DNA of 64,000 bases from the IMG/VR virus record IMGVR_UViG_3300032285_003860, one strand, 5' to 3'. The stretch comes from a virus. Shown in pieces: positions 2,752 to 30,147 of this stretch; position 1 is the stretch's first letter, and the number at the start of each line of letters is the position of its first letter. Position numbers and translations under genes: made by a program. The notes under the pieces are model-generated. The model made no database searches. It was not told where the DNA came from and saw nothing but the letters and a program-made list of their open reading frames with translations.

Positions 2752-2763
2752 TTATAATAAATT

Positions 2764-3930
2764 ATGAAAAAATGGTTTTTAACAGTTTTTTTGGTGATGA
2801 CGGCATTTTTATTAAATGCTCAATATAGTCCTATAACCATCAATCCAAGTGGTAATGTGGTAAATACAAATGCTACTATAACATTTTCTAATTATTCTTT
2901 TTTTAAGACCAATGTATATTTTGGCGGTAATACTTACACGACCAATCATGCTTATGACGCATCTGGTAATCTGCTAGATCCACAGGCTAATGAGTACGTG
3001 ACTGCATCATTTGTTCGAAGCATTTTGAATAATGGTCAGTTCTTATATGGCACTCCAAACGCTACAAATAATATAGGATTTACTAATTATGATGGTACGA
3101 CAAACACAATAGCTTTGCTGTTTGGGACGACGGCTCCGACCAATTACAGTAAACAATTCTCCAACTTTGTGGCTGGTACATATTGGGCATCAGTCATCTC
3201 TACGAATACCTTTCAGTCCGTGTCTGGTCCATATGTGAATGACATATATGTCAATCTTGACTCCGATAAAGCAAATCCGAATCCTATTCCTACATTCACA
3301 ATGATGCCAGACATCTATGCGACCTATGACAGAACCAATCTGATACTGCTTGCCGCCGGCTCTGCACAATCAATTGTCTATCACGATACGAATCTATACA
3401 CGTGGATTCAATCTTCTCCGCAATATACATCTACAAATGCGGCTGGATTTTACATCGTCAGACGCGTGAAGTGCGATTCATTTACAGTTGGTGGTGGTAA
3501 TGGCAAGCCCATCATCAACGTATTTGGTGGATCAAACTACATCACATCCGTTTCATTTAGTACGCCAGTCGTCATCAATGCAAACTACTACGGCGCATTT
3601 ACTGGCACTCATATTGGAGATGGTTCAGCATTAACAAATCTTAACCCAGCAAATTTAATTTTTAATGCTACTACACAAACAACAGCGGTATTAAATTTTA
3701 ATTTAAATGAGATTGCCATTACCAACAATATTACATTCACTTCAGCCACTGGAGTTGCATCAAATGGGTATGCTAAATATATTGGCGCAACTGTTTTTGG
3801 CACTGGTATTACTGTTGCTTGGCCTCAAATTTGGAGCCCAAACAACACCAATTTAGTAGTGCTAACAAATGGCATTGTGGCTTTTAAATGCTTTGGAACC
3901 AATGTGTTTGCAGCTCCTTATCAGCCATGA
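2764..3930 (+). CDS. signal-peptide-bearing, TN-rich fibre-like protein
   Basis: N-terminus MKKWFLTVFLVMTAFLLNA/Q resembles a Sec signal; contains the fibre motif GDGSALTNL; 16 TN dipeptides by hand count. Confidence 0.7.
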   Translation: MKKWFLTVFLVMTAFLLNAQYSPITINPSGNVVNTNATITFSNYSFFKTNVYFGGNTYTTNHAYDASGNLLDPQANEYVTASFVRSILNNGQFLYGTPNATNNIGFTNYDGTTNTIALLFGTTAPTNYSKQFSNFVAGTYWASVISTNTFQSVSGPYVNDIYVNLDSDKANPNPIPTFTMMPDIYATYDRTNLILLAAGSAQSIVYHDTNLYTWIQSSPQYTSTNAAGFYIVRRVKCDSFTVGGGNGKPIINVFGGSNYITSVSFSTPVVINANYYGAFTGTHIGDGSALTNLNPANLIFNATTQTTAVLNFNLNEIAITNNITFTSATGVASNGYAKYIGATVFGTGITVAWPQIWSPNNTNLVVLTNGIVAFKCFGTNVFAAPYQP

Positions 3931-7702: not shown

Positions 7703-8608
7703 ATGGCCACAATACCAAGAATAGTATATTTTGCACAGACAGTGACAATCAATTCTCCATCTGCTGGAACACTTACTCTTCCAATCAGTTCGGCGAATAT
7801 TGAAGTATCAAGACCAATTGAAGCGATCAGCACTTTCGGAAAGTTTTCTTCCTTAAATACTGCTCAAACCAATTTGACTACTTGCAAGAGCACTTTAAAG
7901 GGATATTTAGGGTCTGCATCGGGGGGCATATCTGGATTTACTGCCTCATTCTTAAATAATTTAATCACGGACACGAAAGCCAGCAGCGGTGCATCTATTA
8001 CTGTTTCTCCTGGTGGTTTTGCTATGACTGGTATTCTTACAAGTCTTGGCATCGACATTTCGATGGGTGGTTTTGGTATGATTGATTTAGGATTTGCCGG
8101 TATTGGTAACCCATCAATTACTGCTCCAACTACTACTTATGCTGCTGATCCTGTTAGTTCATATGCGATTTCTCCAATTACTACAATGAGTATCGGAACT
8201 GGTGGTGGATTAGCTAATACTTATGCTACTTCAATTAAATTTTCTTATGATTTGCCAAGTGATACACTCTCTGCTCTTGGAGATAATCCTAATGCAACTC
8301 AAGGAAATTTAACCAGTCAGATGGCTACAAAGCCTCCTTATAAAGCAACAATTAATGTTGAAGGACATGGTGTTGATCCAACAAAACTTGATACTAATTT
8401 TGCTGCCGCTGTTTATGGTATTGGTGATATTGGAGTTGCTCTTCCCAATGCTAAAGTTAGTGCTCGTTCAGTAAATAACGCTGCCGGACAGGTCAGCGAA
8501 TCATTTGCTTATACAATTGAAGATACGACTGCCACACTTACGACAGTTTCTCTTGGAGCTTATAGCCAAAATGGCAATACTCAAACAAGCCCAACTTACG
8601 GAGCTTAA
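7703..8608 (+). CDS. major tail tube protein
   Basis: 301 aa, S/T/G/A-rich and beta-rich; followed by a strong terminator, then chaperone-like genes and the tape measure (canonical order). Confidence 0.65.
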   Translation: MATIPRIVYFAQTVTINSPSAGTLTLPISSANIEVSRPIEAISTFGKFSSLNTAQTNLTTCKSTLKGYLGSASGGISGFTASFLNNLITDTKASSGASITVSPGGFAMTGILTSLGIDISMGGFGMIDLGFAGIGNPSITAPTTTYAADPVSSYAISPITTMSIGTGGGLANTYATSIKFSYDLPSDTLSALGDNPNATQGNLTSQMATKPPYKATINVEGHGVDPTKLDTNFAAAVYGIGDIGVALPNAKVSARSVNNAAGQVSESFAYTIEDTTATLTTVSLGAYSQNGNTQTSPTYGA

Positions 8609-8625
8609 TTCTAATTACAAATCAC

Positions 8626-8653
8626 AAACCCTGGCTTCGGCCAGGGTTTTTTT
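8626..8653 (+). terminator. Rho-independent terminator
   Basis: AAACCCTGGC-TTCG-GCCAGGGTTT stem with a cUUCGg tetraloop followed by a T run. Confidence 0.92.
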
Positions 8654-8674
8654 GTTTCTATGTATCTTTTTCTT

Positions 8675-8680
8675 GTGTAA
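8675..8680 (+). promoter_or_regulatory. GTGTAA putative late promoter motif
   Basis: Located just downstream of the terminator, where transcription must restart. Confidence 0.65.
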
Positions 8681-8704
8681 CTACATTTAAGGGAAAGGAA
8701 CATT

Positions 8705-9052
8705 ATGAATACACCAGAGAGTAAACTTATTGCCATAACTTGCGATAAAGAAATAACGAATCTTTATAAAGACTTCTTAGAAATCATTGAAGACCTTCAA
8801 AAAGACCATTCTATTATGGTCGAAAAAATAAAAGAAAAATACGGTGAAGAATATGCTGAAAACATCAATTATTTTAAACCCGTCAAATACGATCAAATTA
8901 GAAAAAGAGTGCTTGATCACGGCAATGAATGCAATAGAAGTTTGTTAAATTTTCTTGGATTTTTTGATTCAACAATCAATATAGAAAAATTAAATAAAGA
9001 AAAAGTAGTTTATAAAAAAACCATTGTTTCTCCTCCTTTCTACATAGAATAA
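8705..9052 (+). CDS. hypothetical protein (tail assembly region)
   Basis: 115-aa charged helical ORF with AAGGA upstream. Confidence 0.7.
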   Translation: MNTPESKLIAITCDKEITNLYKDFLEIIEDLQKDHSIMVEKIKEKYGEEYAENINYFKPVKYDQIRKRVLDHGNECNRSLLNFLGFFDSTINIEKLNKEKVVYKKTIVSPPFYIE

Positions 9053-9068
9053 TAATAAGAATAAAATT

Positions 9069-9953
9069 ATGGAAAAAGTAAAATATCTTTATGAATCAAC
9101 CGTCCAAAAGACTATTGAAGAAAAAGTGACCGAAAAAAGACAGGAAAATGGTCAAGAAATTGAAGTTTCAAAAACCGTTAAAACCAAAAAGCCCTTTAAA
9201 ATTGCGGTACTAAAGCCTGATAGAAAAAAGTTTAAAGAGGCAGAAATTTTCTACGCCAAAACACTTTCTCATTATTTGAAAGAGGGTCTTCTTCCATATT
9301 CTCTTGTTTCAAAAAGATACATGAATGATGGTGGGCCATTGAGTGACGACGAAAAGAAGTTTATTAATACTCTCAGAGAAAAGTATACAGAAATTCAAGA
9401 AGAATATTTTTCTATGCCTTCGGAATTAACTGAGGCCCATAACAAAAGACGCGCAGAAATTCTTTTAGAAATGACTGACATCAACAAGATTCTTAATGAA
9501 ATTCAAAATAATTATGCTGAATTATTTGACAATACTGCCGAATCCAAGAGTAAAAATGATACTATTGAATGGTGGATTTTGAACTTGAGTTATGCTGATG
9601 AAGATGGAAATGGTCTCAAGCCTTTTTATGGCGAAGAAGATTTCCAATCTAAAATGAAAAAGTTGGAAGCTCATGAAGCTAAAGATGACCCTTTTATTAA
9701 CGAAGTAATAAAAAAGCTTTCTTATTTTATTAGCTTCTGGTATGCCAGCAAATCACAAATCAAAGACGAAGATTTTAAATCTGCGGAAGAACATTATAAC
9801 CAAAATGTTACAACTTATCTTCAAGACGAAGATATTGCTGCCGCCACAGAAACAAAACCGGCAGAATCTGTTGCTCCCCCCACGCCAATTGTTGAATCAG
9901 TTGCTGTTGCCGCCGTTGAAACTCCTATTGAAGTTGCCTCAACGCAATCCTGA
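9069..9953 (+). CDS. putative tail assembly chaperone
   Basis: Acidic, helical 294 aa between tail tube and tape measure; A/V/E/P/T-rich C-terminal tail. Confidence 0.55.
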   Translation: MEKVKYLYESTVQKTIEEKVTEKRQENGQEIEVSKTVKTKKPFKIAVLKPDRKKFKEAEIFYAKTLSHYLKEGLLPYSLVSKRYMNDGGPLSDDEKKFINTLREKYTEIQEEYFSMPSELTEAHNKRRAEILLEMTDINKILNEIQNNYAELFDNTAESKSKNDTIEWWILNLSYADEDGNGLKPFYGEEDFQSKMKKLEAHEAKDDPFINEVIKKLSYFISFWYASKSQIKDEDFKSAEEHYNQNVTTYLQDEDIAAATETKPAESVAPPTPIVESVAVAAVETPIEVASTQS

Positions 9954-9959
9954 TAAAAT

Positions 9960-10823
9960 GTGGAATCGTTTAGAGAATATAAAGTTTCAGAAATAGATGA
10001 ATTAAAACTCATCTATTATGAAATTATTCACGGCAGTAGTTTTGAACCAGACATTAATCTATATATAAAACATTTTTCAGAATTAGAATCATTTCTTATT
10101 TTAAAAAAAAGAACAGAACTGTTTCATTTCTATTCTAAAGAAGGCGTACCGCATGAATTAGAATTGCTCAAAAATGCCATAGCTACAGAAGAATGGTCAG
10201 AAGAAAAAGAAAACAAAATTCTTGAATTTAAATATTTAATTTCTGACAACGAAAAAAATATTCATAATATTATACCTGAGCAACGTGCTCCCATTCAAAA
10301 AATCATTGATAATACAAAAGTACAGCTTAATGAAATGCTTTTTGATAGAAAAGGCATATTGGGCAGAAGCATAGAAGATCTTATTGATGATGATATAGAA
10401 GATTACTTATCCTATCTTTCTTTTTTTAAAGACGAACCCTGTACAATTCCATATTTATCAGATTATGAAGAATTTCAAAAACTTGAAATGTCTGAAATTA
10501 ATAAATTTAATATTAGTCTGGGAAAGACATATAAGAAATTTTCTGAAGAAAACATTAAAAAAATAGCCTGCTTACCTTTCTTTTTAAACAAATTTTCCTA
10601 TTCAAAAGAAAGAATTGATGGATTTTTAGGTAAACCAATCAATTCATTGACCAACAACCAAACCTCTTTATTTTCACTAGGGGTAAGAAATTTAAACGTT
10701 TTATCCCATGCAAAGGGTAGTCCTCCCGATGTATCTCTTGAAGCCAAACCCTTGGATGTTTTAAAATGGTATGATATACAGCATTCCATTATGATTGCCA
10801 AGCAAAATCAATCTGATTCTTAA
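9960..10823 (+). CDS. putative second tail assembly chaperone
   Basis: 287-aa acidic helical ORF, GTG start, immediately before the tape measure. Confidence 0.5.
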   Translation: MESFREYKVSEIDELKLIYYEIIHGSSFEPDINLYIKHFSELESFLILKKRTELFHFYSKEGVPHELELLKNAIATEEWSEEKENKILEFKYLISDNEKNIHNIIPEQRAPIQKIIDNTKVQLNEMLFDRKGILGRSIEDLIDDDIEDYLSYLSFFKDEPCTIPYLSDYEEFQKLEMSEINKFNISLGKTYKKFSEENIKKIACLPFFLNKFSYSKERIDGFLGKPINSLTNNQTSLFSLGVRNLNVLSHAKGSPPDVSLEAKPLDVLKWYDIQHSIMIAKQNQSDS

Positions 10824-10879: not shown

Positions 10880-13800
10880 ATGGAAGATAATTTAGGCCAG
10901 GTAAAGGTATTAATAACTCCAGTAATTGATCAATCAAGACTTGATTCTGGGATAACGGATGCTGCTGAAAAAATGGCAGCACGTTTTGACAAAGCCTTTA
11001 CTGGTAGAGGTCAACCACTTGGAAGAATAACTGGCAAAGTTACAGAGTTTGAAAAATCAATGGAAGCGGCAAATGCCCGCGTTATTGCTTTCGGCGCTTC
11101 TGCTGGTGGTATTTATCTTGTTAAATCTGCGTTTGATAAATTAGTATCTTCAACAATTGATGTAGAAAAAAATCTCACAAATATTAATATGATTTTGGGC
11201 TTGGGAAGTTCCAGCCTAAAAACTTTTTCCGCAGAAATGTTCAAAGCTGCCTCTGCTTCTGGACAAACATTTGAGACTGCTAGTAAAGTTGCCCTTGAAT
11301 TTGCTCGTCACGGTGTAAGCGCGGTAGAAACCTCAAAAAGAATGAGTTCTGCAATGCAGTTAATGAGAATTTCTGGTTTGGATGCAGGAGAATCCGTTGA
11401 TGTATTAACTGCTTCAATTAACTCTTTTAATAAAGAAGCCTTGACATCTGCTGATGTTGTAAACAGACTCACTGCTGTTGATACAAAATTTGCCGTTAGC
11501 GCCCAAGATTTAGCAAAGGCAATTGAACGCGTAGGTTCAACTGCTGCTGAAGCTGGGATACAATTTAATCAATTATTAGGCTTTGTTACTGCTGCTCAGA
11601 CGCAAACTTCTCGTGGTGGCGCAGTTATTGGTAACGCTTTTAAATCAATCTTTACAAGACTAGCTCGTCCAGAAGTGCTCTCTGATTTGCAAGCCGTAGG
11701 CGTAACAACAAAAGATGCTGCTGGGCAAATTTTGCCAATGGTCCAAATCATGAAAAATTTGGCTTCCCAATATAGTCATCTTGGTGCAGCTCAAAAATCA
11801 TTCATATCTGAAACTGTTGGCGGTGTTTATCAAGTCAACATTCTCAAGGCATCTTTAGCAGATTTAGGAAATGGAATTACTATTTTTGATAAAGTTGCCG
11901 CCACTGCCGCAAATTCTGCAGGGGTTGTTGATAAAAGAATGGCTCAATTAAATGAGACAATTTCTTCTAAATTAAATGTTTCTGCAAATCAATTAACTGA
12001 ATTATTTTCTAACTTGGGTAATGTTTCTTTCGGTGGAAACATGAAAAAGGGTCTTGATAGCGTAAATAGTCAATTGGACTTTGTAAAACGTCAATTGGCC
12101 GATTTTTCAGAAGATGATACTTTTGGACAATCATTTGGTAAAACAATTGGCAGAGGATTGGCTGATGCATTTGGTAATATTTTATCTGGACCAGGGCTTC
12201 AAATTGGAGCGATGTTGTTGACTAAAGTCGTTGTAGGTCTTGGTAAGTTTGCAATTGACGCAGGTAAAAATATGATGGGCATGACTGATGCCTTAAAAGC
12301 GCAGCAGGGACTTTTATCTAGCGTGGGTAATTTTTTACAAAATCATAAAACTTTATTAGCAGAGCTTGAGTCTGGTCAAATAAGCATAAATGAAGTGACT
12401 GAACTTTATTTAGCAGACCTCGGAAAAGAAGAAGCGCATTTCGCTGCAATGGCCAGATACCAAAGAGAAATTGCTAGTTTGGCTCGACCATCTTTAAGCG
12501 CAGAAGCATTTGCGGAGTCCAAAACAAAAGGTGCTTCAGCAGGATATATTCCCGCTTTCGCACAAGAAGAAAGAGATGCCAGATCAAAAGGGGCATCTCC
12601 CAGCGTTAGAGCAATGTTTGGTCCAAATATCCCTGGGATTGGTCCAACAATTATTAATAGTGAAGAAGTTGTAAAACAAAATTATGGTGGATCTGGACAG
12701 CCAGCAATACTTCGTACTTATGGACCCCCTGGACCAACAAAACTTTCAGGAGGACTTGTTCCAAATTTAGCAAATATTTTAGGAACAATATCTGTTGAAG
12801 GAATAAGATACCAAAAGCCTGATAAAAAATCATTTCAAGATTTTGATTACCCATTTATAGATTTATTGTCAATGATTCAAGGGCAATATGGCAGACAAAT
12901 TCTCCCAATTTCTGCCAAATCTGGAATAGAAGCTGTATCAAAAGTTGGTCATCCAGGAAATTGGAATATAAGAGGATTTAACAAGCCTGGAGCAATTGCA
13001 AATTATCTTCAAGAATTATCTCGCCCAGAAATGTTTGTACAAGAAAGTTCTGAGCGTTTAAGGCATATAAGATCAAGTAAAGAAGTTTTTAAAAATCGTT
13101 TTATAAATCAAATTGGTGCGTATAATACTCAAGGTTTTGAAAATTTAGAATTTTTAAATCCAGTTGTATTTGGGGCAAAAGAGAAGGGCCAGGAAATATA
13201 TCATCAGATGCAAAAACAACCATTGTTATCTTCTGCTGAAGAATTTCCCGCAATAAAATCGGCAAGAAATTTTCCTTGGTATAGAGGAGGAAAATCTTTT
13301 TCTCCTACAACTATGGTTGAAAACGAAAATATTATTCGCGGTCCAAAAACATATGGCGCATGGTACGAAGATTATATTCAAAAATTTTTAAAAGCTCATC
13401 CAGATATTCTTTCGTTAATTGGTCCAGGAATGACTACAGAAAGCCAGGCTCAATTAAATCAATTATTAAGAAATTTTTCTAAAGATTACGAAGGAGAAGA
13501 GAGATTTTTTGAAGAAAAGTATATAAAGAAATCTGGTGGACACATTCCAAACTTTGGAAAAATAATTAGCAAAGGTGGTTCTGATCTTGATCTTTCTGAA
13601 GATGGAACATTAAAAATACATTATCTCGCTTCATCTATTTCTAACAACGTTTTTCCCGAACTTCTTGAAGCATTAAATTCTGGAGAAATAACAAAAATAG
13701 ATGGAGGAACAATTGTCGGCCCCAAAGTTCCAAATTTAATTCATCATTTATCAAAGCTTTTACCAAAGTTAAGAAAAATAAATCCAAAAATACCCAGTTC

Positions 13801-16800
13801 TATTCCAATAACTGGTTATTTTACTCCTAACGATTTATATCGTAATGCTTTCAGAAATAGGGGCGAAATGGTAACGCGCAATGTTTTGGATTCAGAACAT
13901 CAAAAAAAATTAAAGGAGCTTGCTTCTAGTCAAGGATTAAGAATTGTAAAAACCGGTAGTTATACTCGTTTTGTTAAAAAAGAAGACAAAAATGATTTCA
14001 ACACTGCTTATGAAGTTAAAGTTCCTGGAGAAAGATCTCCAAGATATGGTCTTTTTACAGAAGAAGATATACAAGGAATATTCCCTCAAGCAACATTTAC
14101 TCCAAAAACGCAAAGAGATCTATTTTCTAGTAATACAACCGCCAGAAAAGATCTTACGCAATTAAGAGCTGCTGTCAAAGCGATGGCTGGCGCAAACAGA
14201 CAAAATGTAGAAGATAGATTTGGTAGAGAATATATTGAATTATCAAAAGTTTATCCTCGCGGATTGGCTTCGGGATATAATCCTATTGCCGATGCATTTA
14301 GCAGAGAGAATTCTCCAACTGCAAAGCTTGGTTTTTCTTCAAGAGTTAAAAGTTCTGGAAATCCTGGTGGAGCATTAGTTTATGATTCTTCTTATCAAAA
14401 TGGTCCAGAAGATGCAATCAGACAACATCTTATGTCTGGAAGACCAGACGTAGTAAATGCTGGTACGCCTAATGAAAAAATTCCAAACTTTGCAATGGAT
14501 ATGTCTGCTATTTCAAGCATTGCTCTTGGCGCAATGCAAGGCACAGGACTATCAGACTGGACATCTAAAAAGATGCCTGAAATTTCTTATGGCTTTGATA
14601 AAATGCAACATGCAGTTGGTACTGCCACCGAAAAATTGTTGTTGATGCAAAAACAGTTGGAAGCAGGTCAAAATGTAAAATATGGTGGTCAATCATATGC
14701 ACCAGATCAATCAATAGAATTAACAAATGCATTTAAAAAAGCTTTTGATGAAAAATTTAAAGGCAAAGGTTTTCAATTTGGTACATCTCAAGAAGAATTA
14801 AAATCTCAGCAAGCGGCCTATATTCCTTATATTCAAAAAATACAAGAAAAAGAACAAGGAATTCGTTCTCGTGGATTTGCTGCAAGCATGATTGCCCCCG
14901 CAGTTGGGGGAATTGTTTCTCAGGGGCTTCAAGCTGGTGGGTATCTCAATGCTTCAAAAGCTGTGTCAGCATTAACAGATAGCGCCACAATGGCTGCTCA
15001 ATTCATGATAGCTTTTCCAAACAGAGTTGGAACAGCACTTTCTGGTGCAGTAATGGCTTCTGGTGTTTCTAATGCTCTTAATGAAATGGTTTATAAAACC
15101 GGCACTTTAGAAAGAGCATTTGATTTAACAAGTACAAGATTAGAAAAAACTGCTTCAGCAGTAAATACAATCAATCAAAGTTATGATGCACTTGATTCTG
15201 CATTAAAATCTGGATCAATAAGTACTAGTCAGTTAGTTGCACTTCAAAGAAATTTAGCAAAATCTTATTCAGAATTGGGTGCAGTAAAAGGTGGCGGAGC
15301 AATTGTCGCCGCAATGAAAGGTGCTGGCACAGCCGAAGCAAGAGCAACGGCTGGGGCAGAAGCAGTCGATGCATTACAAAATGAAAGAAATAAAAGTTCA
15401 TTTCAATTAGCTTTTGCAAAACAACAACAAGCTCGTTCTGAATTTGGAATTAATTTTGGAAAAGGAGCGCAAGGAAATCTTACTCCAAGAAATAGACAAG
15501 AACAAATTGAAAATATAGAATTAATGCGTAGTGCTGCATCAAATATTCAAGGTGAATTTATTACTGCCCAAAGTAAAAAGGGTGGAAACGCAGAATTGGT
15601 ACAAAGAATGGCTACAGGAGTAATTTCTAGGTCAGATGTTGAAACAATTAAAAAAGGGGCAAAAGAAACAGAATCCTATAAAGACTTAGAAAAGGCTGAC
15701 CCAAAAGCTGCGGCTGCTGTAATCGAAGAATTAAATAGACAACTTCAAGAGGTTGCTATACCTGATGACCAAATTTCAGCATATAAAGAAAGTCTTGCAA
15801 AATTAAAAAGTCTTCAAATTCAAGAAGTTTATTTGCGCCAAAACTATAATCAGTCTCTGCAAAATAAATTGCAAAGCGGTTCAATTGCTTCTGCGATGGC
15901 CAATACCAAAAATATATATGGTATTCAAAGCAAGGGAATACAAGAGGGTTACGAGTATTCTAAAAAAGAAAAAGGATTGGGATTAGAAGCTCTATACACT
16001 GGTGAGCAGTCAATGATTTTAAAGAGGGGAAAAGAAGAACAAGCTCATATCGCAGAACAAACTAGTCTCAAAGCTCAGGCTGTTAAAGCTCAAGGTGGAG
16101 CAGAAATTGGTTCTTTAATTAGCGGAGAGATTGGAAAATTCATTTCTTCATCTTTGGGAACGGCGGAAGCTTCTGGAAAAACTGGTACGGTGCAGCCAAG
16201 TGAAGCATTGAGTAAAGCAACAGAATATCTTGGCGCCAGACAAAAAGAATTTTCTGGAGCAGGAGGGGCAGAAAAGTTGTTTGAATTACAACAAAAAGCT
16301 ACATCACCAGATGAATTTGCTAAAAGTTATCTTGGAGAATTTAAAGACTTTCAAGCTGGTACTGGGGGAAAAGGTACAGAAGCAGATTACAAAACTTTAC
16401 TCAGTCAAATTTCAACAATGTCGGCGGGAGATATAAATGAAAAAATGCTCAAAACTCTCCTTGATATTCAAAAAGTTGATGAAGAAGGTAACGCACAGCA
16501 AAAAGAAAGCTCTGATCAAATGATTGCTGCCATTGCCGCTTCTAAGTTTAAAGAAGCTGCTGGCCAATTAGGAGGAACAGGAATTTTAGATAGAAATACC
16601 TTTCGTCAACAACGCAGAGAAATAAGAAGAGCAGAATCTAAATTGCGCTCAAGAGATGCCGGAGTAAGAGGCGAAGGGGCAGCAAGATTATTGGCTGCAA
16701 TTCCAGAAAGTCAAAGAGATTATAATGACCCATATATTAAAAAATTATATGATGCTGCCTCTGGAGGCATAGCAAGTAGACAAGCTCGTACATTACAAGG

Positions 16801-18472
16801 AACTGGCATTGGAAAATATATGGTCTCTGGCGCCGAAGCTGGTCAAGCTGCAATTTTTGAAAGATTTAAAGGCACAAATCTTCCTATTCCAAAATCAGTC
16901 AAAGAGGGATTAGAGCAGATGAAAAAAGGCCAAGGCGTAAATCCAGAATTCGACGCCGCTTTAAAAAAATCCGCAAAATCTCTTAAACTCTCTACAGATG
17001 CTGTTGATGCTTTTGCGACTAAAATTAATTCTTTTAATTCTGCCATTGATATTGGTCAAAAAACAGGAGCTATTGCGCAAAACAAAGCCGAACAAGATCA
17101 AGTTAAAGCAGAAATGGAAAAACAAAAGGGTGAGTTACCTGCTGGCACAGCAAAGTCTAGCGAAGCAATTCTTCCCATAACAGATAGTCTTATTACAAGA
17201 TATGGTCAAGATACCGTTCGTCTTTTGACTGATATTTTGGGGGCAATGATTGCTTTGCGCATACTTGGCGGCAAAGGAGCAATTAGTGAAGTTGGTGCAG
17301 GAATTGCTGCTGGTGGTAGAAAAGTAATGGGCGGTATAAAAAGTATTGGTAGAGCTTTTGGTATTGGCGCAGCAGCAGAAGGCTCTGTTGCAGCAGGGGG
17401 CGCTATTGCAACAGAGGCTGTCACAGCGGCAAAGGGGACAATTAAAGTAGATCTCGCCGCTCAACAGGCAAAAGCCTTGGAAAAACAAATGGCTTATATC
17501 CCAGAATCTTTTGGAGGTCCAAAAGCTCCAGGTCCATCTTTCGGGGAAGTTTTGCCAGGAGAATTAACTCATCTTGAACCAACTTCACAACTTAAACCAC
17601 AATTTAAACCTGGTGTTCCCGTAACTGATGCAGAAATAAATTCTGCTTTAAATGCAGGAAGAGAATCTGGAAGACAAGCGGCGAGCACAAGTAGAGCCAT
17701 TGCCGCCACGGAACAGGCAGCAAAGACTGCCAGCGAAGCTTCTAAAGCTGGTAAAGTATTGGGTATGGGAGCAAAAGTTGGAAAATTTGTAGGGGGTAGT
17801 CCACTTTTAGGAGATTTAGTAGACGTTGCTTCTATTGGTGCAGGAGCCATCTCTGGAGGAGGAAATATATCCGAAACAATGGGCGACATGATGTTAGAAT
17901 CTGCAAAAGAAAGAGTTAATAAACCTGGTGGACATATGGGCGGTGACTTTTTGGCTGGTATGACCGTAAGAGGAATGACCAGTTCTTTCTTAGCTAAAGA
18001 TGTTAGTAAAATGCAAGAAGGCGAAGGTGGCATAAATAGATTAGAAAATGCCATAAAAATGAAAGAATTGATAAAATCTCAAGGTGGCAACATTAAAAAC
18101 GCTGAATTATTTAGCCCAGATTTTAGAAAAAATTTATTAAATCCAGAATGGCAGCAGTCTCATGGTCTTGCCCCTCATTTGGATAAATCTGGTGGCATTG
18201 TTGCTCCAACTGGCGCAGCAATTCCAACTGGAGACGCTGCTGCCAAAGCCACAGGACAAAAACCAGAGTCAGAGGCTTCTAAAACAGAGAAAAAGCCAGC
18301 AGAACCACAAAAGGTTGATGTTAAAATGAGTGCGGAGCCATTGCATGTAAATGTTACTGTTACCGATGAAAATGGTAAAAAGATACAAGAAATGCAGCAA
18401 CAAATTGTTCAGTTCAAGCAAAAACTAGAAGAAGTAACTGGAAATAAAACTCCAGCGGCTATAACTAAATAA
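10880..18472 (+). CDS. tail tape measure protein with internal globular cassettes
   Basis: 2530 aa; TP901-type TMP core (AQDLAKAIERVGSTA...RGGAVIGNAFKSIFTRL); long Ala/Gly/Lys helical regions; follows the chaperone-like genes. Confidence 0.9.
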   Translation: MEDNLGQVKVLITPVIDQSRLDSGITDAAEKMAARFDKAFTGRGQPLGRITGKVTEFEKSMEAANARVIAFGASAGGIYLVKSAFDKLVSSTIDVEKNLTNINMILGLGSSSLKTFSAEMFKAASASGQTFETASKVALEFARHGVSAVETSKRMSSAMQLMRISGLDAGESVDVLTASINSFNKEALTSADVVNRLTAVDTKFAVSAQDLAKAIERVGSTAAEAGIQFNQLLGFVTAAQTQTSRGGAVIGNAFKSIFTRLARPEVLSDLQAVGVTTKDAAGQILPMVQIMKNLASQYSHLGAAQKSFISETVGGVYQVNILKASLADLGNGITIFDKVAATAANSAGVVDKRMAQLNETISSKLNVSANQLTELFSNLGNVSFGGNMKKGLDSVNSQLDFVKRQLADFSEDDTFGQSFGKTIGRGLADAFGNILSGPGLQIGAMLLTKVVVGLGKFAIDAGKNMMGMTDALKAQQGLLSSVGNFLQNHKTLLAELESGQISINEVTELYLADLGKEEAHFAAMARYQREIASLARPSLSAEAFAESKTKGASAGYIPAFAQEERDARSKGASPSVRAMFGPNIPGIGPTIINSEEVVKQNYGGSGQPAILRTYGPPGPTKLSGGLVPNLANILGTISVEGIRYQKPDKKSFQDFDYPFIDLLSMIQGQYGRQILPISAKSGIEAVSKVGHPGNWNIRGFNKPGAIANYLQELSRPEMFVQESSERLRHIRSSKEVFKNRFINQIGAYNTQGFENLEFLNPVVFGAKEKGQEIYHQMQKQPLLSSAEEFPAIKSARNFPWYRGGKSFSPTTMVENENIIRGPKTYGAWYEDYIQKFLKAHPDILSLIGPGMTTESQAQLNQLLRNFSKDYEGEERFFEEKYIKKSGGHIPNFGKIISKGGSDLDLSEDGTLKIHYLASSISNNVFPELLEALNSGEITKIDGGTIVGPKVPNLIHHLSKLLPKLRKINPKIPSSIPITGYFTPNDLYRNAFRNRGEMVTRNVLDSEHQKKLKELASSQGLRIVKTGSYTRFVKKEDKNDFNTAYEVKVPGERSPRYGLFTEEDIQGIFPQATFTPKTQRDLFSSNTTARKDLTQLRAAVKAMAGANRQNVEDRFGREYIELSKVYPRGLASGYNPIADAFSRENSPTAKLGFSSRVKSSGNPGGALVYDSSYQNGPEDAIRQHLMSGRPDVVNAGTPNEKIPNFAMDMSAISSIALGAMQGTGLSDWTSKKMPEISYGFDKMQHAVGTATEKLLLMQKQLEAGQNVKYGGQSYAPDQSIELTNAFKKAFDEKFKGKGFQFGTSQEELKSQQAAYIPYIQKIQEKEQGIRSRGFAASMIAPAVGGIVSQGLQAGGYLNASKAVSALTDSATMAAQFMIAFPNRVGTALSGAVMASGVSNALNEMVYKTGTLERAFDLTSTRLEKTASAVNTINQSYDALDSALKSGSISTSQLVALQRNLAKSYSELGAVKGGGAIVAAMKGAGTAEARATAGAEAVDALQNERNKSSFQLAFAKQQQARSEFGINFGKGAQGNLTPRNRQEQIENIELMRSAASNIQGEFITAQSKKGGNAELVQRMATGVISRSDVETIKKGAKETESYKDLEKADPKAAAAVIEELNRQLQEVAIPDDQISAYKESLAKLKSLQIQEVYLRQNYNQSLQNKLQSGSIASAMANTKNIYGIQSKGIQEGYEYSKKEKGLGLEALYTGEQSMILKRGKEEQAHIAEQTSLKAQAVKAQGGAEIGSLISGEIGKFISSSLGTAEASGKTGTVQPSEALSKATEYLGARQKEFSGAGGAEKLFELQQKATSPDEFAKSYLGEFKDFQAGTGGKGTEADYKTLLSQISTMSAGDINEKMLKTLLDIQKVDEEGNAQQKESSDQMIAAIAASKFKEAAGQLGGTGILDRNTFRQQRREIRRAESKLRSRDAGVRGEGAARLLAAIPESQRDYNDPYIKKLYDAASGGIASRQARTLQGTGIGKYMVSGAEAGQAAIFERFKGTNLPIPKSVKEGLEQMKKGQGVNPEFDAALKKSAKSLKLSTDAVDAFATKINSFNSAIDIGQKTGAIAQNKAEQDQVKAEMEKQKGELPAGTAKSSEAILPITDSLITRYGQDTVRLLTDILGAMIALRILGGKGAISEVGAGIAAGGRKVMGGIKSIGRAFGIGAAAEGSVAAGGAIATEAVTAAKGTIKVDLAAQQAKALEKQMAYIPESFGGPKAPGPSFGEVLPGELTHLEPTSQLKPQFKPGVPVTDAEINSALNAGRESGRQAASTSRAIAATEQAAKTASEASKAGKVLGMGAKVGKFVGGSPLLGDLVDVASIGAGAISGGGNISETMGDMMLESAKERVNKPGGHMGGDFLAGMTVRGMTSSFLAKDVSKMQEGEGGINRLENAIKMKELIKSQGGNIKNAELFSPDFRKNLLNPEWQQSHGLAPHLDKSGGIVAPTGAAIPTGDAAAKATGQKPESEASKTEKKPAEPQKVDVKMSAEPLHVNVTVTDENGKKIQEMQQQIVQFKQKLEEVTGNKTPAAITK

Positions 18473-18490
18473 GTATTATAATATAATTAT

Positions 18491-20323
18491 ATGGCAAATT
18501 TTGTAGGTTTAATAACTGGCACACTGGGATACGAAAAAAGGAAAGAGTTTTTCGGTAATGCCCTTATGCTCAGGGAGGTTGACACATACAACTATGAAAT
18601 TTATAGCACTGATTTTGCCACCCAAAATGCAGATGTAATTCAAAATAAAATACAGCAGCAATTTTCTAGTGTTTATTCTGGAGATGTTAATGTTAAAGTA
18701 TTTAATACTCAAAACACTTATCAATTTCCTAGCGATAGCTTAAGAGCTTCAAGATTTTCGGTAACCGTTGAAATTAAATTGCCATACGCCAATTTATCCA
18801 GTGACTTTACTGAATTGGCTGGAAATTATTACAAGGGTTTAGATTCAACATTCTTTACTAACTATGGCAAATATTTGTTGGATTTTAAAGAAGATTTTAC
18901 CTTTGCTACAAATGCAAATGGAAATAGAGAATTTGGACATAATGTTTCTTTTGGATTACAAACTGGTTGGTCAGGAGTCAATTCTCAAGCAGGAAGAAAA
19001 TCTTATGCGCAGCAAGTAGTTAGCGGCATCTTTAGTCAAGACAAAAATACCACATTTGGTATAGATACAATGGTTGGTAATGTTCTTTATGTCGGGGACA
19101 GTGGAGTGTTTAGAAATTACTTTTCAGAATCTTATGACTTGATGAAAAACTCTTATAGTTTTTCAAGAAAAAGAGAGCAATTGCCCATTGATTCAACAAA
19201 TTCCATTTATAATCTTAATTATGCAATTAATTTAAATACAGATGGTACTGTTGATGTTTCAGAGAAAGCTTCCACAATGGCAAAGATTAGTTTCAATTCC
19301 GCAAAGACTGATTTTGATAATTTTTATACTGGGTCATATGGTCGCTGTAATGTTATGTTTAATAAATTTTATAATTCAAACATTATGCTGCAAGACACGC
19401 AGTATTCCACCTATGGAATAAATGCTGTTTCTGGGTTAATAAATTCTCCTTTAAAATTAACAAGATTTTACGACACAAATAGTATGCAGTTAAATTATGA
19501 TGTCACTTATACCAACAACCCAAACTATTCTGGGCCAGGAACAATACAATCAGAAACTCTTGAATTTAATATTGATAAATATAATAAAGTCGAGGTTTCT
19601 CATGCCTTTGATTTTATATCTAATAGGATTACGGGCAGCGCCGCAACATTTTCTAGTTTAATTAATTCTGCTATTTCATCAACTGGACCAACAGTAAGTG
19701 GGTATTATAGCTCAAATTTTTCTAATATCAATACAATTTTCCCAAAAATTAATTTAATTAAAAGCACGGCGAGTTATCCAAATATCAAAACAAAAGCAAT
19801 GGCCAAGTTTGAATATAGTAACAATCCCACTTATTTTGTTACATATAATGGCATAGTTTTTAAAATTTTAGATTATGATATTGAAAAGAAATCTCCCCCA
19901 GATTTAATTAAAGAATATAAAATTGTTAATCGCCCCACTAAAAAGTCAGTAATGACTTATGAATATCAATCAGAAAGGGGTATATTGTCGGTCAGCGTAA
20001 AAGCTTCAATTGGCAAACAAAATAATCAATTTTATCCAAACACTAATGGGACTTTTTCGCCATTGAATGATGATTCAAATAGTAATAATTTGCAACTATA
20101 TCAATATTTAAATGCCCTTTATCAATACGCTGGACAATTGTTCCTGGCTCAATTTGGCAATCCAACGGTGGCATTTAATTGGTTTATTTCTGATTCTAGT
20201 TATTCTTTTAGTTCTGAAGGCGAATTAATGGTAAAAATAGATTATAATTATACATTAAAGAAGAGATCCAATGTTTTACAAAGCAATCAAAGGCCCACCA
20301 CAGTCCCAGTAGGTGGTTATTAA
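18491..20323 (+). CDS. tail tip/distal tail protein
   Basis: 610 aa, beta-rich, directly after the TMP; shares N.DGTV.V..K.S with the next gene. Confidence 0.55.
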   Translation: MANFVGLITGTLGYEKRKEFFGNALMLREVDTYNYEIYSTDFATQNADVIQNKIQQQFSSVYSGDVNVKVFNTQNTYQFPSDSLRASRFSVTVEIKLPYANLSSDFTELAGNYYKGLDSTFFTNYGKYLLDFKEDFTFATNANGNREFGHNVSFGLQTGWSGVNSQAGRKSYAQQVVSGIFSQDKNTTFGIDTMVGNVLYVGDSGVFRNYFSESYDLMKNSYSFSRKREQLPIDSTNSIYNLNYAINLNTDGTVDVSEKASTMAKISFNSAKTDFDNFYTGSYGRCNVMFNKFYNSNIMLQDTQYSTYGINAVSGLINSPLKLTRFYDTNSMQLNYDVTYTNNPNYSGPGTIQSETLEFNIDKYNKVEVSHAFDFISNRITGSAATFSSLINSAISSTGPTVSGYYSSNFSNINTIFPKINLIKSTASYPNIKTKAMAKFEYSNNPTYFVTYNGIVFKILDYDIEKKSPPDLIKEYKIVNRPTKKSVMTYEYQSERGILSVSVKASIGKQNNQFYPNTNGTFSPLNDDSNSNNLQLYQYLNALYQYAGQLFLAQFGNPTVAFNWFISDSSYSFSSEGELMVKIDYNYTLKKRSNVLQSNQRPTTVPVGGY

Positions 20324-20326
20324 TTT

Positions 20327-21991
20327 ATGACAAACAGTATAACAGTATCATATAATGGCACAGCTTTAAATCCAACGCCATTAATTAATTATTCAAAAAC
20401 GCCAATTAATTTTGGTTATATCTATGGATACAATACAGATATAACTTTAGATGGTCTTTATTCTGGTATATTAACCACTGGAGCAACAATATCTGCTTTA
20501 ACAACCATATTTGCAAATCAATTTAAAACGTTGAGCGTTGATACAGACACAACTACAAATCTTTATAAGTGGGATAATGTAACTGTTGATTCTATATCAA
20601 TTGATCCGAACCCCTATTACTCAGGCAGCTTTGTCAAATATTCTATTAAATTAAAATCTTATGATTTCCCTAGTGGGGTTATCGACCCTTCGAATGAATA
20701 TTCTTTTACCCAAAATGATGATGGAACAGTAAATGTTAATCATAAAATTAGCGCAAGAGGCGTAAGAAATAATGTTGGCGCATTTGCAAATGCAATCGCT
20801 TTTGTTGGTCAGTTTACTGGAAGAGACCCATATTCAAATTGTGCTCCTTATTTTGTTCCAAATGGGAGCGGGGTATTATTAAGCTCTTCAGAAAGTATAA
20901 ATCGCGCAGAAGGCATATATAGCGTTAACGAAGTTTATAAATATATAACTGGAGACACAACAAGTCCTTATTTTCATACTACCAATTTAAGTATTGATGA
21001 TAGCATTGAAGCAGATTTTAGAAAAATAAGTTACGAGTTAAAAATACAGGGCTCACCAATATCAAAAAATTTAGAAAACGTTATTTCTACTTTAAATTAT
21101 GATCTTCAGTCAGACATTGGAGATGAGTTTGGGTTTGATGTTTCTAACTGGGTCAAAGATACTTATTCTGCTACCATTGATTCTGGTTCAGCATCAATTG
21201 ATATAAAAGTTGGTTACATTTCTGGTGCATCAATAAAAACTGGATTTTTTGATTATGATGTGGTTTGGGATAATGACAGACTAACAAATACAGAAAACTG
21301 GAAAGTAAATGGGGACTTTAGATGTTTTGGACCATTAGAATATAAAAGAAATCAATTGGATAAATTTAAAACGGCTAATAATATAAATTTATCGGGAAAT
21401 GACGCTTGGCGTCCTTATTTATCTGGATTAATAACTTCTTCTCCAATTTATTCGACATTGCATGACTCTTTTAAGAGGTTGTCTTATAATTCCAAAGTTG
21501 TCGTAGACGAAAATCAAAAATTAGCCACATTAAGATTGTCTTTGGAATTAAATGCATCATATGAACCCGCAGGCACTTCTGATTTAAGATATTCTTTAGA
21601 AGGCTCTCCATCAAAGTGGATATATGAATTACTCCCTTCTGCAAATATTGAAGGTTCTTTTGTTATTCAAGACTTACAGTTGCAAACACAGCCAAAACAA
21701 AAATTTACAATTTCAGCAAAAACATATAATAAAGATGCCGCCGCCTCGACTATCTATGGATATATGGGTGGATTAACTTCAACATATGTAAATTCTGGCA
21801 CAGATACAGATGTGGGCGCATTTTTAATTGATGAAAATTTACGCACTGGCGTTTATGATGTTTCTTTGTCTAAAGAATTTTTAGGAAATGATAATGCCTC
21901 AATTTCTTCTACTTTGTTAAAATTGCAGGCAATTGGTACATATTCTGGAACTGTTGCAGTTCGTCCTGGAGGATATAATTTTGGTTATTAA
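20327..21991 (+). CDS. tail tip protein
   Basis: 554 aa; QNDDGTVNVNHKIS motif; call from synteny. Confidence 0.55.
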   Translation: MTNSITVSYNGTALNPTPLINYSKTPINFGYIYGYNTDITLDGLYSGILTTGATISALTTIFANQFKTLSVDTDTTTNLYKWDNVTVDSISIDPNPYYSGSFVKYSIKLKSYDFPSGVIDPSNEYSFTQNDDGTVNVNHKISARGVRNNVGAFANAIAFVGQFTGRDPYSNCAPYFVPNGSGVLLSSSESINRAEGIYSVNEVYKYITGDTTSPYFHTTNLSIDDSIEADFRKISYELKIQGSPISKNLENVISTLNYDLQSDIGDEFGFDVSNWVKDTYSATIDSGSASIDIKVGYISGASIKTGFFDYDVVWDNDRLTNTENWKVNGDFRCFGPLEYKRNQLDKFKTANNINLSGNDAWRPYLSGLITSSPIYSTLHDSFKRLSYNSKVVVDENQKLATLRLSLELNASYEPAGTSDLRYSLEGSPSKWIYELLPSANIEGSFVIQDLQLQTQPKQKFTISAKTYNKDAAASTIYGYMGGLTSTYVNSGTDTDVGAFLIDENLRTGVYDVSLSKEFLGNDNASISSTLLKLQAIGTYSGTVAVRPGGYNFGY

Positions 21992-21997
21992 GTGTAA
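21992..21997 (+). promoter_or_regulatory. GTGTAA putative late promoter motif
   Basis: Directly after the stop codon; followed by AGGACAAAGG and ATG 22022. Confidence 0.6.
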
Positions 21998-22021
21998 TTA
22001 ATCATATTAGGACAAAGGAAA

Positions 22022-23818
22022 ATGAATACCAACTCTTTTTTAACTTGCTTAAATGCAGCGGGAGTAAACACAGGAATTTCCATTCTTGGTTTATATTCAT
22101 TTTCTAGTGGTACCCCTTCACTAGTTTATAATCAAGTATATACAACTGGATTAAACTTATATAATGGTTCTCCTTATGCCCCATCTTTGCCATTAATTTT
22201 TGTTGGCACAGGCAATCAAACTAGCGGCAGTTTTTCAAAAAAACAACCTTATCAAATAGGTACAGGTATACCCAGTATTTTTTCTACAATTTTTTCTTTA
22301 AACTATAGTGGATGTTTAAATAATCAGGGGAGCAATTATTTACTTGCTTCAACAGTTTTTGATTATAATAGTTCTACTTCTGGGGTTTCGCTAGGAATCA
22401 CTCCTTCTAATAGGCTTTTTTTCAATACCAAGAATTATTCATATACTTTACCACAAGAAATTGGAATTGGAGATTTTGCTTGTTTTAGCGTTCAAGATAA
22501 TAGATTTGTGAATATTGGATTAATGAATTTAAGAGATAATTCATATACTCAAAAATTTTATGACGCTGGGAGCGGAGCATTAGATTCTTCTCAATTATTT
22601 ATCGGAGGAATGAAAAATTATCCTCCCAATTTTACTGGATACTCTGGCGTTATAAAAGATATATATTTATTTAGCGGTAATCTATCAAATCAATTTATAA
22701 GTAATTGTGTAGACTGTTCATTTGCCACCGGCTCATCTTATTCATCTTTAACCTCTGGATATAGTTCTGCCAAAATAACGGGGTCTTATTGGACTGGTAT
22801 TTATGAAACTGGCATAACAGGTTATCAAACTGTTTCCACCTCATACATAAAACAAGATGGAACTTCTGGCACCCTATATATTAATTCTGGATTAACTGGA
22901 AATATTTTATCGTATTATGGTCTTACTCCTCAAATTCAAAATGTCCAGTACAACCTTACTGGAACAGGAATTTCAATTCAATATGATACAGGAACAAGAG
23001 CAGGTTATTCAACTTTTGATTTATATATTCAACAGGGTCTTGTTTCTGGGGATGTAGTAGAAGTTTATACTTATCCCGTCAACAACTCTAATATTGAGTT
23101 GTCTATATTTAATAATTTATATCCAATTGTAAGTGGTGAGGCGCAGATATATGGCAATGGTCTTGCAGAAACCTCTGGGGTAGATTATACTGTTGCTTTT
23201 AATAATGTAATTAATGGTTTTGACAACAATGATGTCCTTTTGTATGACATTTATCCTGTAACTTTTACAATGCCTTATCAAAGCGGGTATGTTTCCACTG
23301 GTGTTTCTGGTTCTGGTTATATTTTAATTACTGGCATTAGTGGTATAAATTTGAATTCGGGATTTAACTATGATTTTTACCTAAATGGTCAAAAAATGAT
23401 TAGCGGCTTAAATTATACTTCTAGTGGATCCACTTTAAGGGTTTCTGGCAATGATTTATCCGACATTAATGACCCATATCAAGATTATCTTGAGGCCAAA
23501 TTTATACCCATTTATTCTGGTTTTTTAAGAAAACTTTACCAAATATCTGGAAGTCAGTACTATATTAGCGGAATTTTAGGGTTTAATCAACAAATCTGGG
23601 TTAATGGTCTTAGACAGAGGCTCAATATTGATTATTATAAATATAGCAGATGTAGGTTCTGTTCTGGTGATTTTAATGACCCTAATTATTCATTTAATTT
23701 ATATAATAATGTATCAAGTACACTAGATTTATTTAATCTATATGACCTAGATTCTATAGTTTTTGGTTTTGATGGACAGCCACTCTTAGATACAAGTGGG
23801 CAGTTTATTTATTTTTAA
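22022..23818 (+). CDS. tail-associated virion protein with LamG-like N-terminus
   Basis: LFIGG...YSGVIKDIYLFSG LamG-like motif; repeated Y.NG....SG.DY units; very [ST]G-rich. Confidence 0.6.
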   Translation: MNTNSFLTCLNAAGVNTGISILGLYSFSSGTPSLVYNQVYTTGLNLYNGSPYAPSLPLIFVGTGNQTSGSFSKKQPYQIGTGIPSIFSTIFSLNYSGCLNNQGSNYLLASTVFDYNSSTSGVSLGITPSNRLFFNTKNYSYTLPQEIGIGDFACFSVQDNRFVNIGLMNLRDNSYTQKFYDAGSGALDSSQLFIGGMKNYPPNFTGYSGVIKDIYLFSGNLSNQFISNCVDCSFATGSSYSSLTSGYSSAKITGSYWTGIYETGITGYQTVSTSYIKQDGTSGTLYINSGLTGNILSYYGLTPQIQNVQYNLTGTGISIQYDTGTRAGYSTFDLYIQQGLVSGDVVEVYTYPVNNSNIELSIFNNLYPIVSGEAQIYGNGLAETSGVDYTVAFNNVINGFDNNDVLLYDIYPVTFTMPYQSGYVSTGVSGSGYILITGISGINLNSGFNYDFYLNGQKMISGLNYTSSGSTLRVSGNDLSDINDPYQDYLEAKFIPIYSGFLRKLYQISGSQYYISGILGFNQQIWVNGLRQRLNIDYYKYSRCRFCSGDFNDPNYSFNLYNNVSSTLDLFNLYDLDSIVFGFDGQPLLDTSGQFIYF

Positions 23819-23828
23819 TAATTAATAT

Positions 23829-29185: not shown

Positions 29186-29190
29186 AACCT

Positions 29191-30147
29191 ATGGCAGACA
29201 CAAAAAGCTTGGCTTACGCAAAACAAACAAAGAAAAATGTAGATAGTTTGAATACTAACTCTCTCATTACTGCCACTGTTATTGCCAATTATGGCGATCC
29301 AGGGCTTGATGAAGATTATTATTTTGATATTTTAAGTAGATATGTAATATGTGTTATAGAATCTTCCAATAGATTAATTACTGCTAATGGATGGGCAAAT
29401 GGAAAGAGTTTAATTGTTGTAAAAAGACCAGAAAGCCTATGGATAAATTATCAAGGTGGATTCCTCAACGACGTAGCCACGCAACAAAGAATAGATTATA
29501 ATTTAAATACAAATGTCGGTCCAGCAGGTAATTATGCTACAAATGTTATACCAAGAATCAATTATCCTTATCAAATGGGTGAAACAATTCAGGTTAGAAG
29601 ACTGACTCCAACTGTATCTTCTTTGGTTCAAAATAATTATCAAAAGTTTTTTTATTCACAGTGCACCAATAGCATAACTGATACAAGATATAAAAATTAT
29701 GGAATTTGGCATGAACAAGGAATGGGTACTCTTTCTTATTATTCGTCCGACCAACAAGCAAAAATAACAGAAAAAACCTTGGCAAATATAGCTGGTTATC
29801 CAAATTATTTTGATATTCGCCTCAATAAATATCAATATGAGGCATTTATGCTTACAAAGTATCCCGAATTGACAAAAAGTTTAACTCCATTCTTTTTAAG
29901 CAAAACAACTCCAAATCAAGCATATAAAACTTATCAAGGCGGCTATCTTTTCTTTCAAAATGAATTTATTGCAATAAATAGAGTTTTATATGAAGATGTA
30001 AACGCTGGACCTTTAACAAAACAAAGATTAAGCGTTGATAGTTGTATACCGCTTATCGTTACCACGCCAAATTCATTTTCTGTGCCAAGCACAAGGGCAA
30101 CAGCAACGATAAGTTATACGCCTACATATATAACAAAAAGTAATTAA
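29191..30147 (+). CDS. hypothetical virion protein
   Basis: 318-aa ORF ending the + strand block. Confidence 0.65.
   Translation: MADTKSLAYAKQTKKNVDSLNTNSLITATVIANYGDPGLDEDYYFDILSRYVICVIESSNRLITANGWANGKSLIVVKRPESLWINYQGGFLNDVATQQRIDYNLNTNVGPAGNYATNVIPRINYPYQMGETIQVRRLTPTVSSLVQNNYQKFFYSQCTNSITDTRYKNYGIWHEQGMGTLSYYSSDQQAKITEKTLANIAGYPNYFDIRLNKYQYEAFMLTKYPELTKSLTPFFLSKTTPNQAYKTYQGGYLFFQNEFIAINRVLYEDVNAGPLTKQRLSVDSCIPLIVTTPNSFSVPSTRATATISYTPTYITKSN

Follow-up and report, generated by a model that had tools for sequence, protein, structure and literature searches.

Tape measure proteins (TMPs) are usually treated as helical rulers, sometimes with one wall-degrading domain. The TMP gene of the virus record IMGVR_UViG_3300032285_003860, of which a stretch of 64,000 nucleotides (hereafter the window) was analysed, raises the question of why such a ruler should contain long non-helical segments punctuated by a repeated peptide. 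The gene (P0001, 10880..18472, plus strand, as are all features of the TMP given below) is an open reading frame (ORF) of 2530 amino acids (aa). A preliminary description had listed five related motifs within it and proposed that they delimit swappable, globular cargo; all five translate at the positions given and in frame with the ORF. As set out below, we favour, with moderate confidence, a reading in which the TMP contains a motif-fenced insertion zone with exchangeable cassettes, these being most likely virion-borne cargo of the TMP and the motif a signal carried once by each module.

Cassette exchange at a repeated peptide

The TMP of a close relative, L001 (IMGVR_UViG_3300023184_009676), matches that of the window with 93.5% identity over aa 1-892 and with 88% over aa 887-2528. 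Between these two blocks, it carries 242 extra residues, i.e. one cassette, at the third motif of the window (motif 3, KKSGGHIPNFG, aa 883-893, 13526..13558), and the two BLASTP segments overlap on this motif. The insert starts directly after ...GGVVPNFA and closes with its own ...SGYAPNFG. At the DNA level, the window agrees with the first of the two L001 copies on the upstream side and with the second on the downstream side, and changes from one to the other inside GGTGGA-5nt-TCCAAAYTTTG, which are motif codons. The proposal of cassettes swappable at their linkers is thus borne out by a near-identical phage whose TMP has precisely one cassette more and whose DNA junction falls within motif codons.

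Two further exchanges are independent of this case. L055 and L058 share 99.7% identity as far as 4 aa beyond a motif, where they pass into different cassettes, and L058 differs from L038 by one cassette exchanged between two motifs. In TMP pairs that share segments of at least 75% identity, 82 right-hand homology breakpoints were counted, and 59 of them (72%; these counts are not independent events) lie at most 10 aa from a motif end, mostly at -1 to +4; for random positions, the proportion is 4% when drawn from the whole protein and 15% when drawn from the zone. Every insertion preserves the reading frame and brings exactly one motif. Together, these comparisons show that recombination adds, removes and exchanges cassettes as whole units, with junctions in or beside the motif. 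The coding sequence of a short repeated peptide would offer a place where modules could be joined in frame by recombination.

The junction motif and its distribution

The motif spans 11 residues, [GYN][AK][AS]xG[FY][IV]PNF[AS], with G-F/Y-I/V-P-N-F-A as core peptide. A position matrix was built on 313 strict instances from 95 related TMPs; at the matrix threshold, the locus-derived TMPs contain 344 copies. Information is confined to positions -7 to +3 relative to the Pro, with none downstream. In the window, four sites score 17.9 (aa 551-561), 7.9 (aa 621-631), 27.5 (aa 883-893, motif 3) and 10.9 (aa 1195-1205), while shuffled TMPs (about 99,000 positions) gave a top score of 6.4 and a second of -0.8.

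Motif 1 (GASAGYIPAFA, aa 551-561, 12530..12562) aligns with the first motif of relatives and has Ala in place of Asn, as does the first site of several of them. Motif 2 (KLSGGLVPNLA, aa 621-631, 12740..12772) is degenerate, and L001 has the canonical GGLVPNFA at this position. Motif 5 (GTPNEKIPNFA, aa 1195-1205, 14462..14494) aligns with the last motif of relatives and ends the insertion zone. The remaining site, LASGYNPIA (aa 1129-1137, 14264..14290), was placed by alignment and is unscored by the matrix: where relatives read GLAxGYIPNFANPL, the window reads GLASGY-----NPIA, the five residues IPNFA being deleted. Four of the five motifs of the preliminary description therefore score above the shuffled controls, and the fifth is a relic of motif 4.

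Elsewhere in the window, no other six-frame ORF of at least 50 aa contains the motif, and non-TMP ORFs flanking 80 relative loci yield a single match in 436,000 residues. We also searched IMG/VR DNA with the back-translated motif alone, which returned at least 120 stretches, 80 of which were examined. In these, 49 ORFs with the motif show the N-terminal signature of the TMP, and another 38 are truncated at their 5’ end; the sole ORF with a complete N-terminus and no such signature is one of 53 aa. Since the motif is nearly absent both from flanking non-TMP ORFs and from non-TMP ORFs in this search, it is a hallmark of this TMP family. We define the PNF-motif TMP family by at least two copies of xG[FY][IV]PNF[AS] that come after the N-terminal domain and flank small modules of ~80 aa and ~75 aa; the window TMP has four scoring copies and one relic, and both of its small modules align. 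That the motif is a chance or low-complexity repeat has a practically negligible probability: its matrix scores lie far over those of the shuffled controls, it occurs in all 95 relatives, and the scan of other ORFs points the same way. The literature that we consulted contains no description of it in connection with a TMP.

The codons of the motif vary, and conservation is thus at the protein level; for the same reason, a reading of the motif as a DNA- or RNA-level signal was rejected. Across the TMPs of loci L001-L080, CCT accounts for 64% of the motif Pro codons as opposed to 33% for other Pro residues of the same genes, a weak test given that the sequences are related, and the Gly, Asn and Phe codons of the motif deviate little from background. 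This CCT preference may reflect shared descent or DNA-level selection.

Constant modules and variable cassettes

Between the motifs lie two small modules and two cassettes. The two segments of about 235-250 aa, which the preliminary description had singled out, are indeed poor in Ala and rich in aromatic residues and Pro relative to the rest of the TMP: the cassettes contain 4.8-5.1% Ala and 13-18% F+Y+W+P, as against 13% Ala and 7-8% F+Y+W+P elsewhere in the protein.

Small module 1 (aa 562-620, 12563..12739) is Gly/Pro-rich and constant; phmmer finds homologues in 44 motif-bounded segments of relatives (alignment A6). The small terminal module (aa 1138-1194, 14291..14461) is likewise constant and Gly/Pro-rich, with a conserved RE...NPxG core (alignment A7) and homologues in P0006, P0009, P0014 and others. 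Modelled as a monomer with AlphaFold2 (AF2), it is predicted to be disordered, with a predicted local distance difference test score (pLDDT) of about 30. Compared with each other by hhalign, the two small modules have only the motif and ~15 following residues in common, and neither matches any PDB sequence.

Cassette 1 (aa 632-882, 12773..13525), between motifs 2 and 3, is an orphan, non-helical segment of ~250 aa. Its sole homologue is in L001; neither a set of 1.84 billion representative proteins nor 329 segments of relatives yielded another. A search of the protein Atlas returned unnamed viral clusters only, and the AF2 model computed from the two-sequence alignment is unusable (pLDDT 36.5). 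Cassette 2 (aa 894-1128, 13559..14263; ~235 aa) belongs to a shuffled family present in ~10 other TMPs, once as a tandem pair, and its homologues lie at differing positions (P0003, P0004, P0005, P0010, P0002, P0008, P0012, P0017 and P0019). One of these, P0017 (951 aa), starts with Met and combines four motifs with a tandem pair from the cassette 2 family, but is without the TMP N-terminal domain; it could represent either a fragment or a motif-fenced protein that stands by itself.

The AF2 model of cassette 2, from a ten-row alignment, is of alpha/beta type with an overall pLDDT of 59.5 and blocks mostly at 56-84 over residues 11-245, whereas motifs and terminal module are near 30. Cassette 2 is thus predicted to be an alpha/beta globule and not TMP helix. 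This model has no structural neighbour above noise: the best VIA-align (wide) Z is 4.9, and Foldseek E-values against PDB and BFVD are above 0.07. The insertion zone and both cassettes are without match in Pfam, PHROGs and PDB sequences. Accordingly, the fold claimed earlier for the cassettes stands for cassette 2 to the extent that its model departs from TMP helix, but it acquires no Foldseek or VIA-align relative, and cassette 1 contributes no usable model. The suggestion of effector or anti-defence functions found no echo, as both cassettes were negative in Pfam, PHROGs, PDB and Atlas searches and cassette 2 also in Foldseek and VIA-align.

Selection on the insertion zone

Between the window and L001, the ratio of nonsynonymous to synonymous substitution rates (dN/dS) is 0.05 for the N-terminal domain and about 0.14 for the ruler. 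It is 0.10 for small module 1 and 0.09 for aa 1129-1205, which includes the terminal module, and rises to 0.27 for cassette 1 and 0.25 for cassette 2, over ~250 codons each. From these ratios, the small modules are the most constrained parts of the insertion zone, and both cassettes are under purifying selection while evolving about twice as fast as the rest. The view of every segment between motifs as swappable cargo needs amending in this respect: it suits cassettes 1 and 2, but not the modules at aa 562-620 and 1138-1194, which are constant, with dN/dS of 0.09-0.10.

Could the cassettes be mere passengers, i.e. neutral or selfish insertions in a permissive loop of the TMP that are of no use to the phage? 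Most cassette families are singletons without a known domain, and cassette 1 has a homologue in only one close relative, as would be expected of passengers. However, dN/dS values of 0.25-0.27 argue that the cassettes are functional sequence; their frames stay open, insertions keep the frame and bring one motif each, and Pfam detects no homing endonuclease or intein motifs in the TMP. We consider the passenger explanation quite improbable. An intein or a homing element was likewise rejected as the nature of the insertions.

The wider family and its cassettes

A HMMER scan of the 1.84 billion representative proteins with aa 552-1205 retrieved 18 proteins, including the window’s own cluster, nearly all of 1900-3900 aa; the motif is present in 1-10 copies in all save two short fragments. 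With a profile of the conserved N-terminal domain, at least 577 IMG/VR stretches encoding relatives of the TMP were found, the best 80 of which were fetched. All 95 related TMPs analysed carry the motif, again in 1-10 copies. In the modal layout, four motifs near aa 546, 628, 900 and 975 delimit two small modules, the first of ~82 aa and the second of ~75 aa, with a single cassette of ~270 aa between them, and in most members the two small constant modules flank 1-8 variable cassettes. The motif-bounded segments fall into 55 sequence clusters, most of them singletons. The alignment of related TMPs that had been called for thus returned what the cassette proposal predicted, namely conserved linkers with cassettes variable in number and identity.

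In L010, L013, L018 and L036, further copies of the motif and of the small modules lie deep in the ruler, at TMP residues of about 1850-3800, which suggests a second insertion zone.

By tblastn, the zone has no match in 50,697 records of cultured phages, and the N-terminal domain finds there only generic TP901 TMPs at ~25% identity. The TMP is housed in a large, uncultured family of mostly aquatic phages. Relatives on contigs binned into metagenome-assembled genomes (L081-L105) are most often assigned to Flavobacteriales/Flavobacterium, and also to Proteobacteria, Neomarinimicrobiota, Halobacteriovorax and others; these contigs probably come from phages and ended up in the bins by accident, giving a weak hint as to the host.

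A Pfam search of ~30 cassettes of relatives gave matches to HIGH_NTase1_ass (34 bits, cut-off 26.7) and PcfJ (30.8 bits, cut-off 25), a GHKL ATPase just under the cut-off and weak matches to GNAT and ParB_N, while no lysozyme or peptidase family was found among them. PDB searches with the enzyme-like cassettes gave no informative match.

The commonest cassette of relatives is not in the window. It is ~270 aa long and follows directly after small module 1 (L014:11777-12589, alignment A8). Across 30 diverse cassettes of this type, GxxFE, [FI]D ~22 aa on and [DE]xK a further ~38 aa on are invariant, a spacing that is the catalytic pattern of PD-(D/E)xK nucleases, although Pfam, PDB profile and Atlas searches return no match. 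Cassette 1 occupies the same position, and the motif is all that it has in common with the profile of this cassette; neither cassette 1 nor cassette 2 has a detectable relation to it.

These cassettes bear on a structural explanation, in which tail assembly is the task of the motif and of both small modules, by setting the register of three chains or by docking to a chaperone or to the tube, and in which the cassettes would be structural or envelope-acting parts of the TMP, such as a spacer, a plug or an aid to periplasmic penetration, and not cytoplasmic effectors. We regard this explanation as a minority possibility. In its favour, the small modules flanked by motifs occur throughout the family and are under the strongest constraint in the zone, and the motif is confined to the TMP. 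Most cassettes have no recognisable enzyme domain, and wall-degrading domains embedded in a TMP are known, such as the T5 pb2 peptidase (PMC10038345). Yet a fixed structural role fits poorly with 1-8 cassettes of unrelated sequence that are exchanged between near-identical phages, the ~30 cassettes contain no lysozyme or peptidase match, and such enzyme-like matches as there are belong to nucleotide-handling types.

Gene and tail-module context

The product of 10880-18472 is, on sequence grounds, identified as a TP901-type TMP. PF10145 (PhageMin_Tail) matches aa 123-311 (nucleotides 11246-11812) with an E-value of 2.8e-25 and 89.8 bits, well over the Pfam cut-off of 33.2; within its first 400-500 residues, the protein also matches nine tape measure families of PHROGs, the best with an E-value of 2e-43. 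The protein has the PF10145 match in its N-terminal third, as members of the TP901 family do; it is the longest ORF of the window and is Ala-rich with hydrophobic stretches, which that family requires. Its N-terminal TP901-type domain (aa 1-550, 10880..12529) holds the PF10145 match and a hydrophobic stretch at aa 434-460, and is 34-40% identical to its counterparts in the best 80 of at least 577 IMG/VR relatives. After the insertion zone comes an Ala/Gly-rich remainder (aa 1206-2530, 14495..18469) that includes a hydrophobic segment (aa 2112-2131), is collinear with its L001 counterpart (88% identity by BLASTP) and, from its composition, is presumed to be the helical ruler.

The window is AT-rich, with a GC content of 32-37%, and its gene order is phage-like. 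GC content peaks at 0.416 in the interval 16001-18000, compared with ~0.33-0.35 elsewhere, and the 3’ part of the TMP gene has a strong skew of G over C and of A over T. Two antisense ORFs within this 3’ part (17135-17488 and 17569-18054; 117 and 161 aa) are probably spurious. For none of the ten genes flanking the TMP gene (7703-10823 and 18491-30147; 115-1159 aa) did Pfam or PHROGs give a credible match, the sole hit being to a PHROG family of unknown function (E-value 0.0019). As far as these searches go, annotation of the tail module of this phage group by sequence appears essentially impossible, and gene order is what places the TMP gene in such a module.

Proposed delivery, possible cutting and the role of the motif

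The insertion zone between the N-terminal domain and the Ala-rich ruler is a chain of modules, each ending in a motif. In the reading that we favour, the TMP would fill the tube of the tail and precede the DNA out of it, so that the cassettes would reach the host envelope or cytoplasm with it. We propose that the cassettes are virion-borne cargo because TMPs sit in the tail tube and exit before the DNA, and because there is a precedent in gp96 of the Thermus phage P23-45, a TMP fused to a virion RNA polymerase that acts on the incoming genome (PMC10770324). Like the TMP described here, gp96 is a giant siphophage TMP carrying a globular enzyme in the virion, and it shows that a TMP can deliver an enzyme (PMC10770324). 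Unlike it, gp96 has one fixed enzyme at its extreme N-terminus, with no repeated linker, variable cassette chain or reported exchange; the window TMP, for its part, has no Pfam match to an RNA polymerase family at E-values up to 1. By this analogy, the cassettes are probably delivered to the host.

As for the motif, it would be a per-module signal for a conserved partner, either a tail assembly chaperone or the tube lumen, for the loading of non-helical modules, or a protease, for their separation. A conserved reader is suggested by the one-sided conservation of the motif, by its single copy per module, by its flanking of both universal small modules and by its restriction to the TMP.

Several observations weigh against cargo delivery with a per-module signal. 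The family has no cultured member, tblastn on the phage records finding only the generic TP901 N-terminal domain. Neither cassette of the window has a fold or function match. No partner of the motif can be named from the ten neighbouring genes, none of which has a Pfam or PHROG match, and the breakpoint statistics come from the 82 non-independent counts mentioned above. Finally, three copies of a folded 25-kDa domain would be a tight fit in the lumen of a tail tube.

The protease alternative leads to a polyprotein explanation, in which the motifs are proteolytic or self-cleavage sites, cut in tail maturation or after ejection, with release of the cassettes. Conservation on the N-terminal side only, ending in a small residue (A/S/G), is a feature of many protease sites, and cleavage after Asn (N|F, N|A) occurs in the capsid proteins of tetraviruses and nodaviruses. 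Among TMPs, T5 pb2 and lambda gpH are cut in tail maturation and have an enzymatic part set apart from the ruler (PMC10038345); pb2 is cut after R1127, between ruler and enzymatic domain, at SFVPR|AEGG, a site having F-V-P in common with the motif, and both pieces stay in the tail (PMC10038345). The likeness does not go far, since pb2 has a single C-terminal site and a C-terminal peptidase. No more than the tripeptide F-V-P is shared, and neither small-module profile shows homology to its cleavage region (hhalign probability at most 0.2% for both).

Other observations also tell against cutting. Pfam detects no protease in the TMP, and Pfam and PHROGs detect none among the ten neighbours. In 8% of strict copies, the residue next to the motif is Pro, and this makes a cut behind the small residue less likely; the Asn of the first site is replaced by A, Q, S or D in many members, the window included; and motif 4 is lost in the window. 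Moreover, the virion RNA polymerase of P23-45 is proposed to act while still attached to its TMP (PMC10770324). We think the polyprotein explanation unlikely, and cutting at the motif, taken by itself, about equally so. The most specific version is slightly more doubtful: that the PNF peptide is cut, possibly at Asn-Phe, after assembly or ejection of the TMP, making it a tail-delivered polyprotein that frees exchangeable effectors ahead of the genome.

Cargo delivery by a motif-fenced TMP also invites comparison with two further systems. Polyvalent proteins are likewise very large, with unrelated and rapidly reshuffled domains; they have been proposed to accompany the DNA into the host, sometimes undergoing processing (Iyer et al. 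2017, PMC5512222). They differ in their proposed packaging in the head or transfer by conjugation and in drawing on a set of known domains (metallopeptidase, ART, ParB, methylases and others), and the paper describing them mentions neither TMPs nor a conserved junction peptide (PMC5512222). The cassettes of the window have no Pfam, PHROG or PDB match to such domains; the HIGH_NTase1_ass, PcfJ and near-threshold GHKL matches of relatives amount to a functional resemblance to polyvalent proteins and not to membership among them. Sle1-type effectors of actinobacterial contractile injection systems are similar in that a TMP-derived carrier bears an exchangeable domain in a tail-like tube (PMC13277306). 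They are, however, cargo of a contractile nanomachine and not a phage ruler, with one C-terminal domain and no PNF-type junction motif reported (PMC13277306). Enzyme-carrying TMPs, and reshuffled proteins proposed to be injected, were thus already known, while we found no prior description of a conserved junction peptide fencing a variable chain of cassettes inside a TMP.

Implications

For the whole family, the ruler is to be seen as a rack of interchangeable globular modules joined by one conserved peptide; a relative of this TMP is encoded on at least 577 environmental contigs. A structural problem arises, namely in what way globular domains are kept inside a tail tube and travel through it. 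The arrangement also suggests a design rule taken from nature: foreign proteins might be loaded into the tails of phages by giving each module one junction peptide. Should the modules be delivered, siphophages would have a general route to bring in pre-made proteins before gene expression, and these could be nucleotide-handling enzymes or possibly nucleases. If, in addition, the polyprotein explanation were true, a very widespread group of aquatic phages would possess a plug-and-play injection system. The many orphan cassettes would constitute a reservoir of unknown, early-acting phage proteins.

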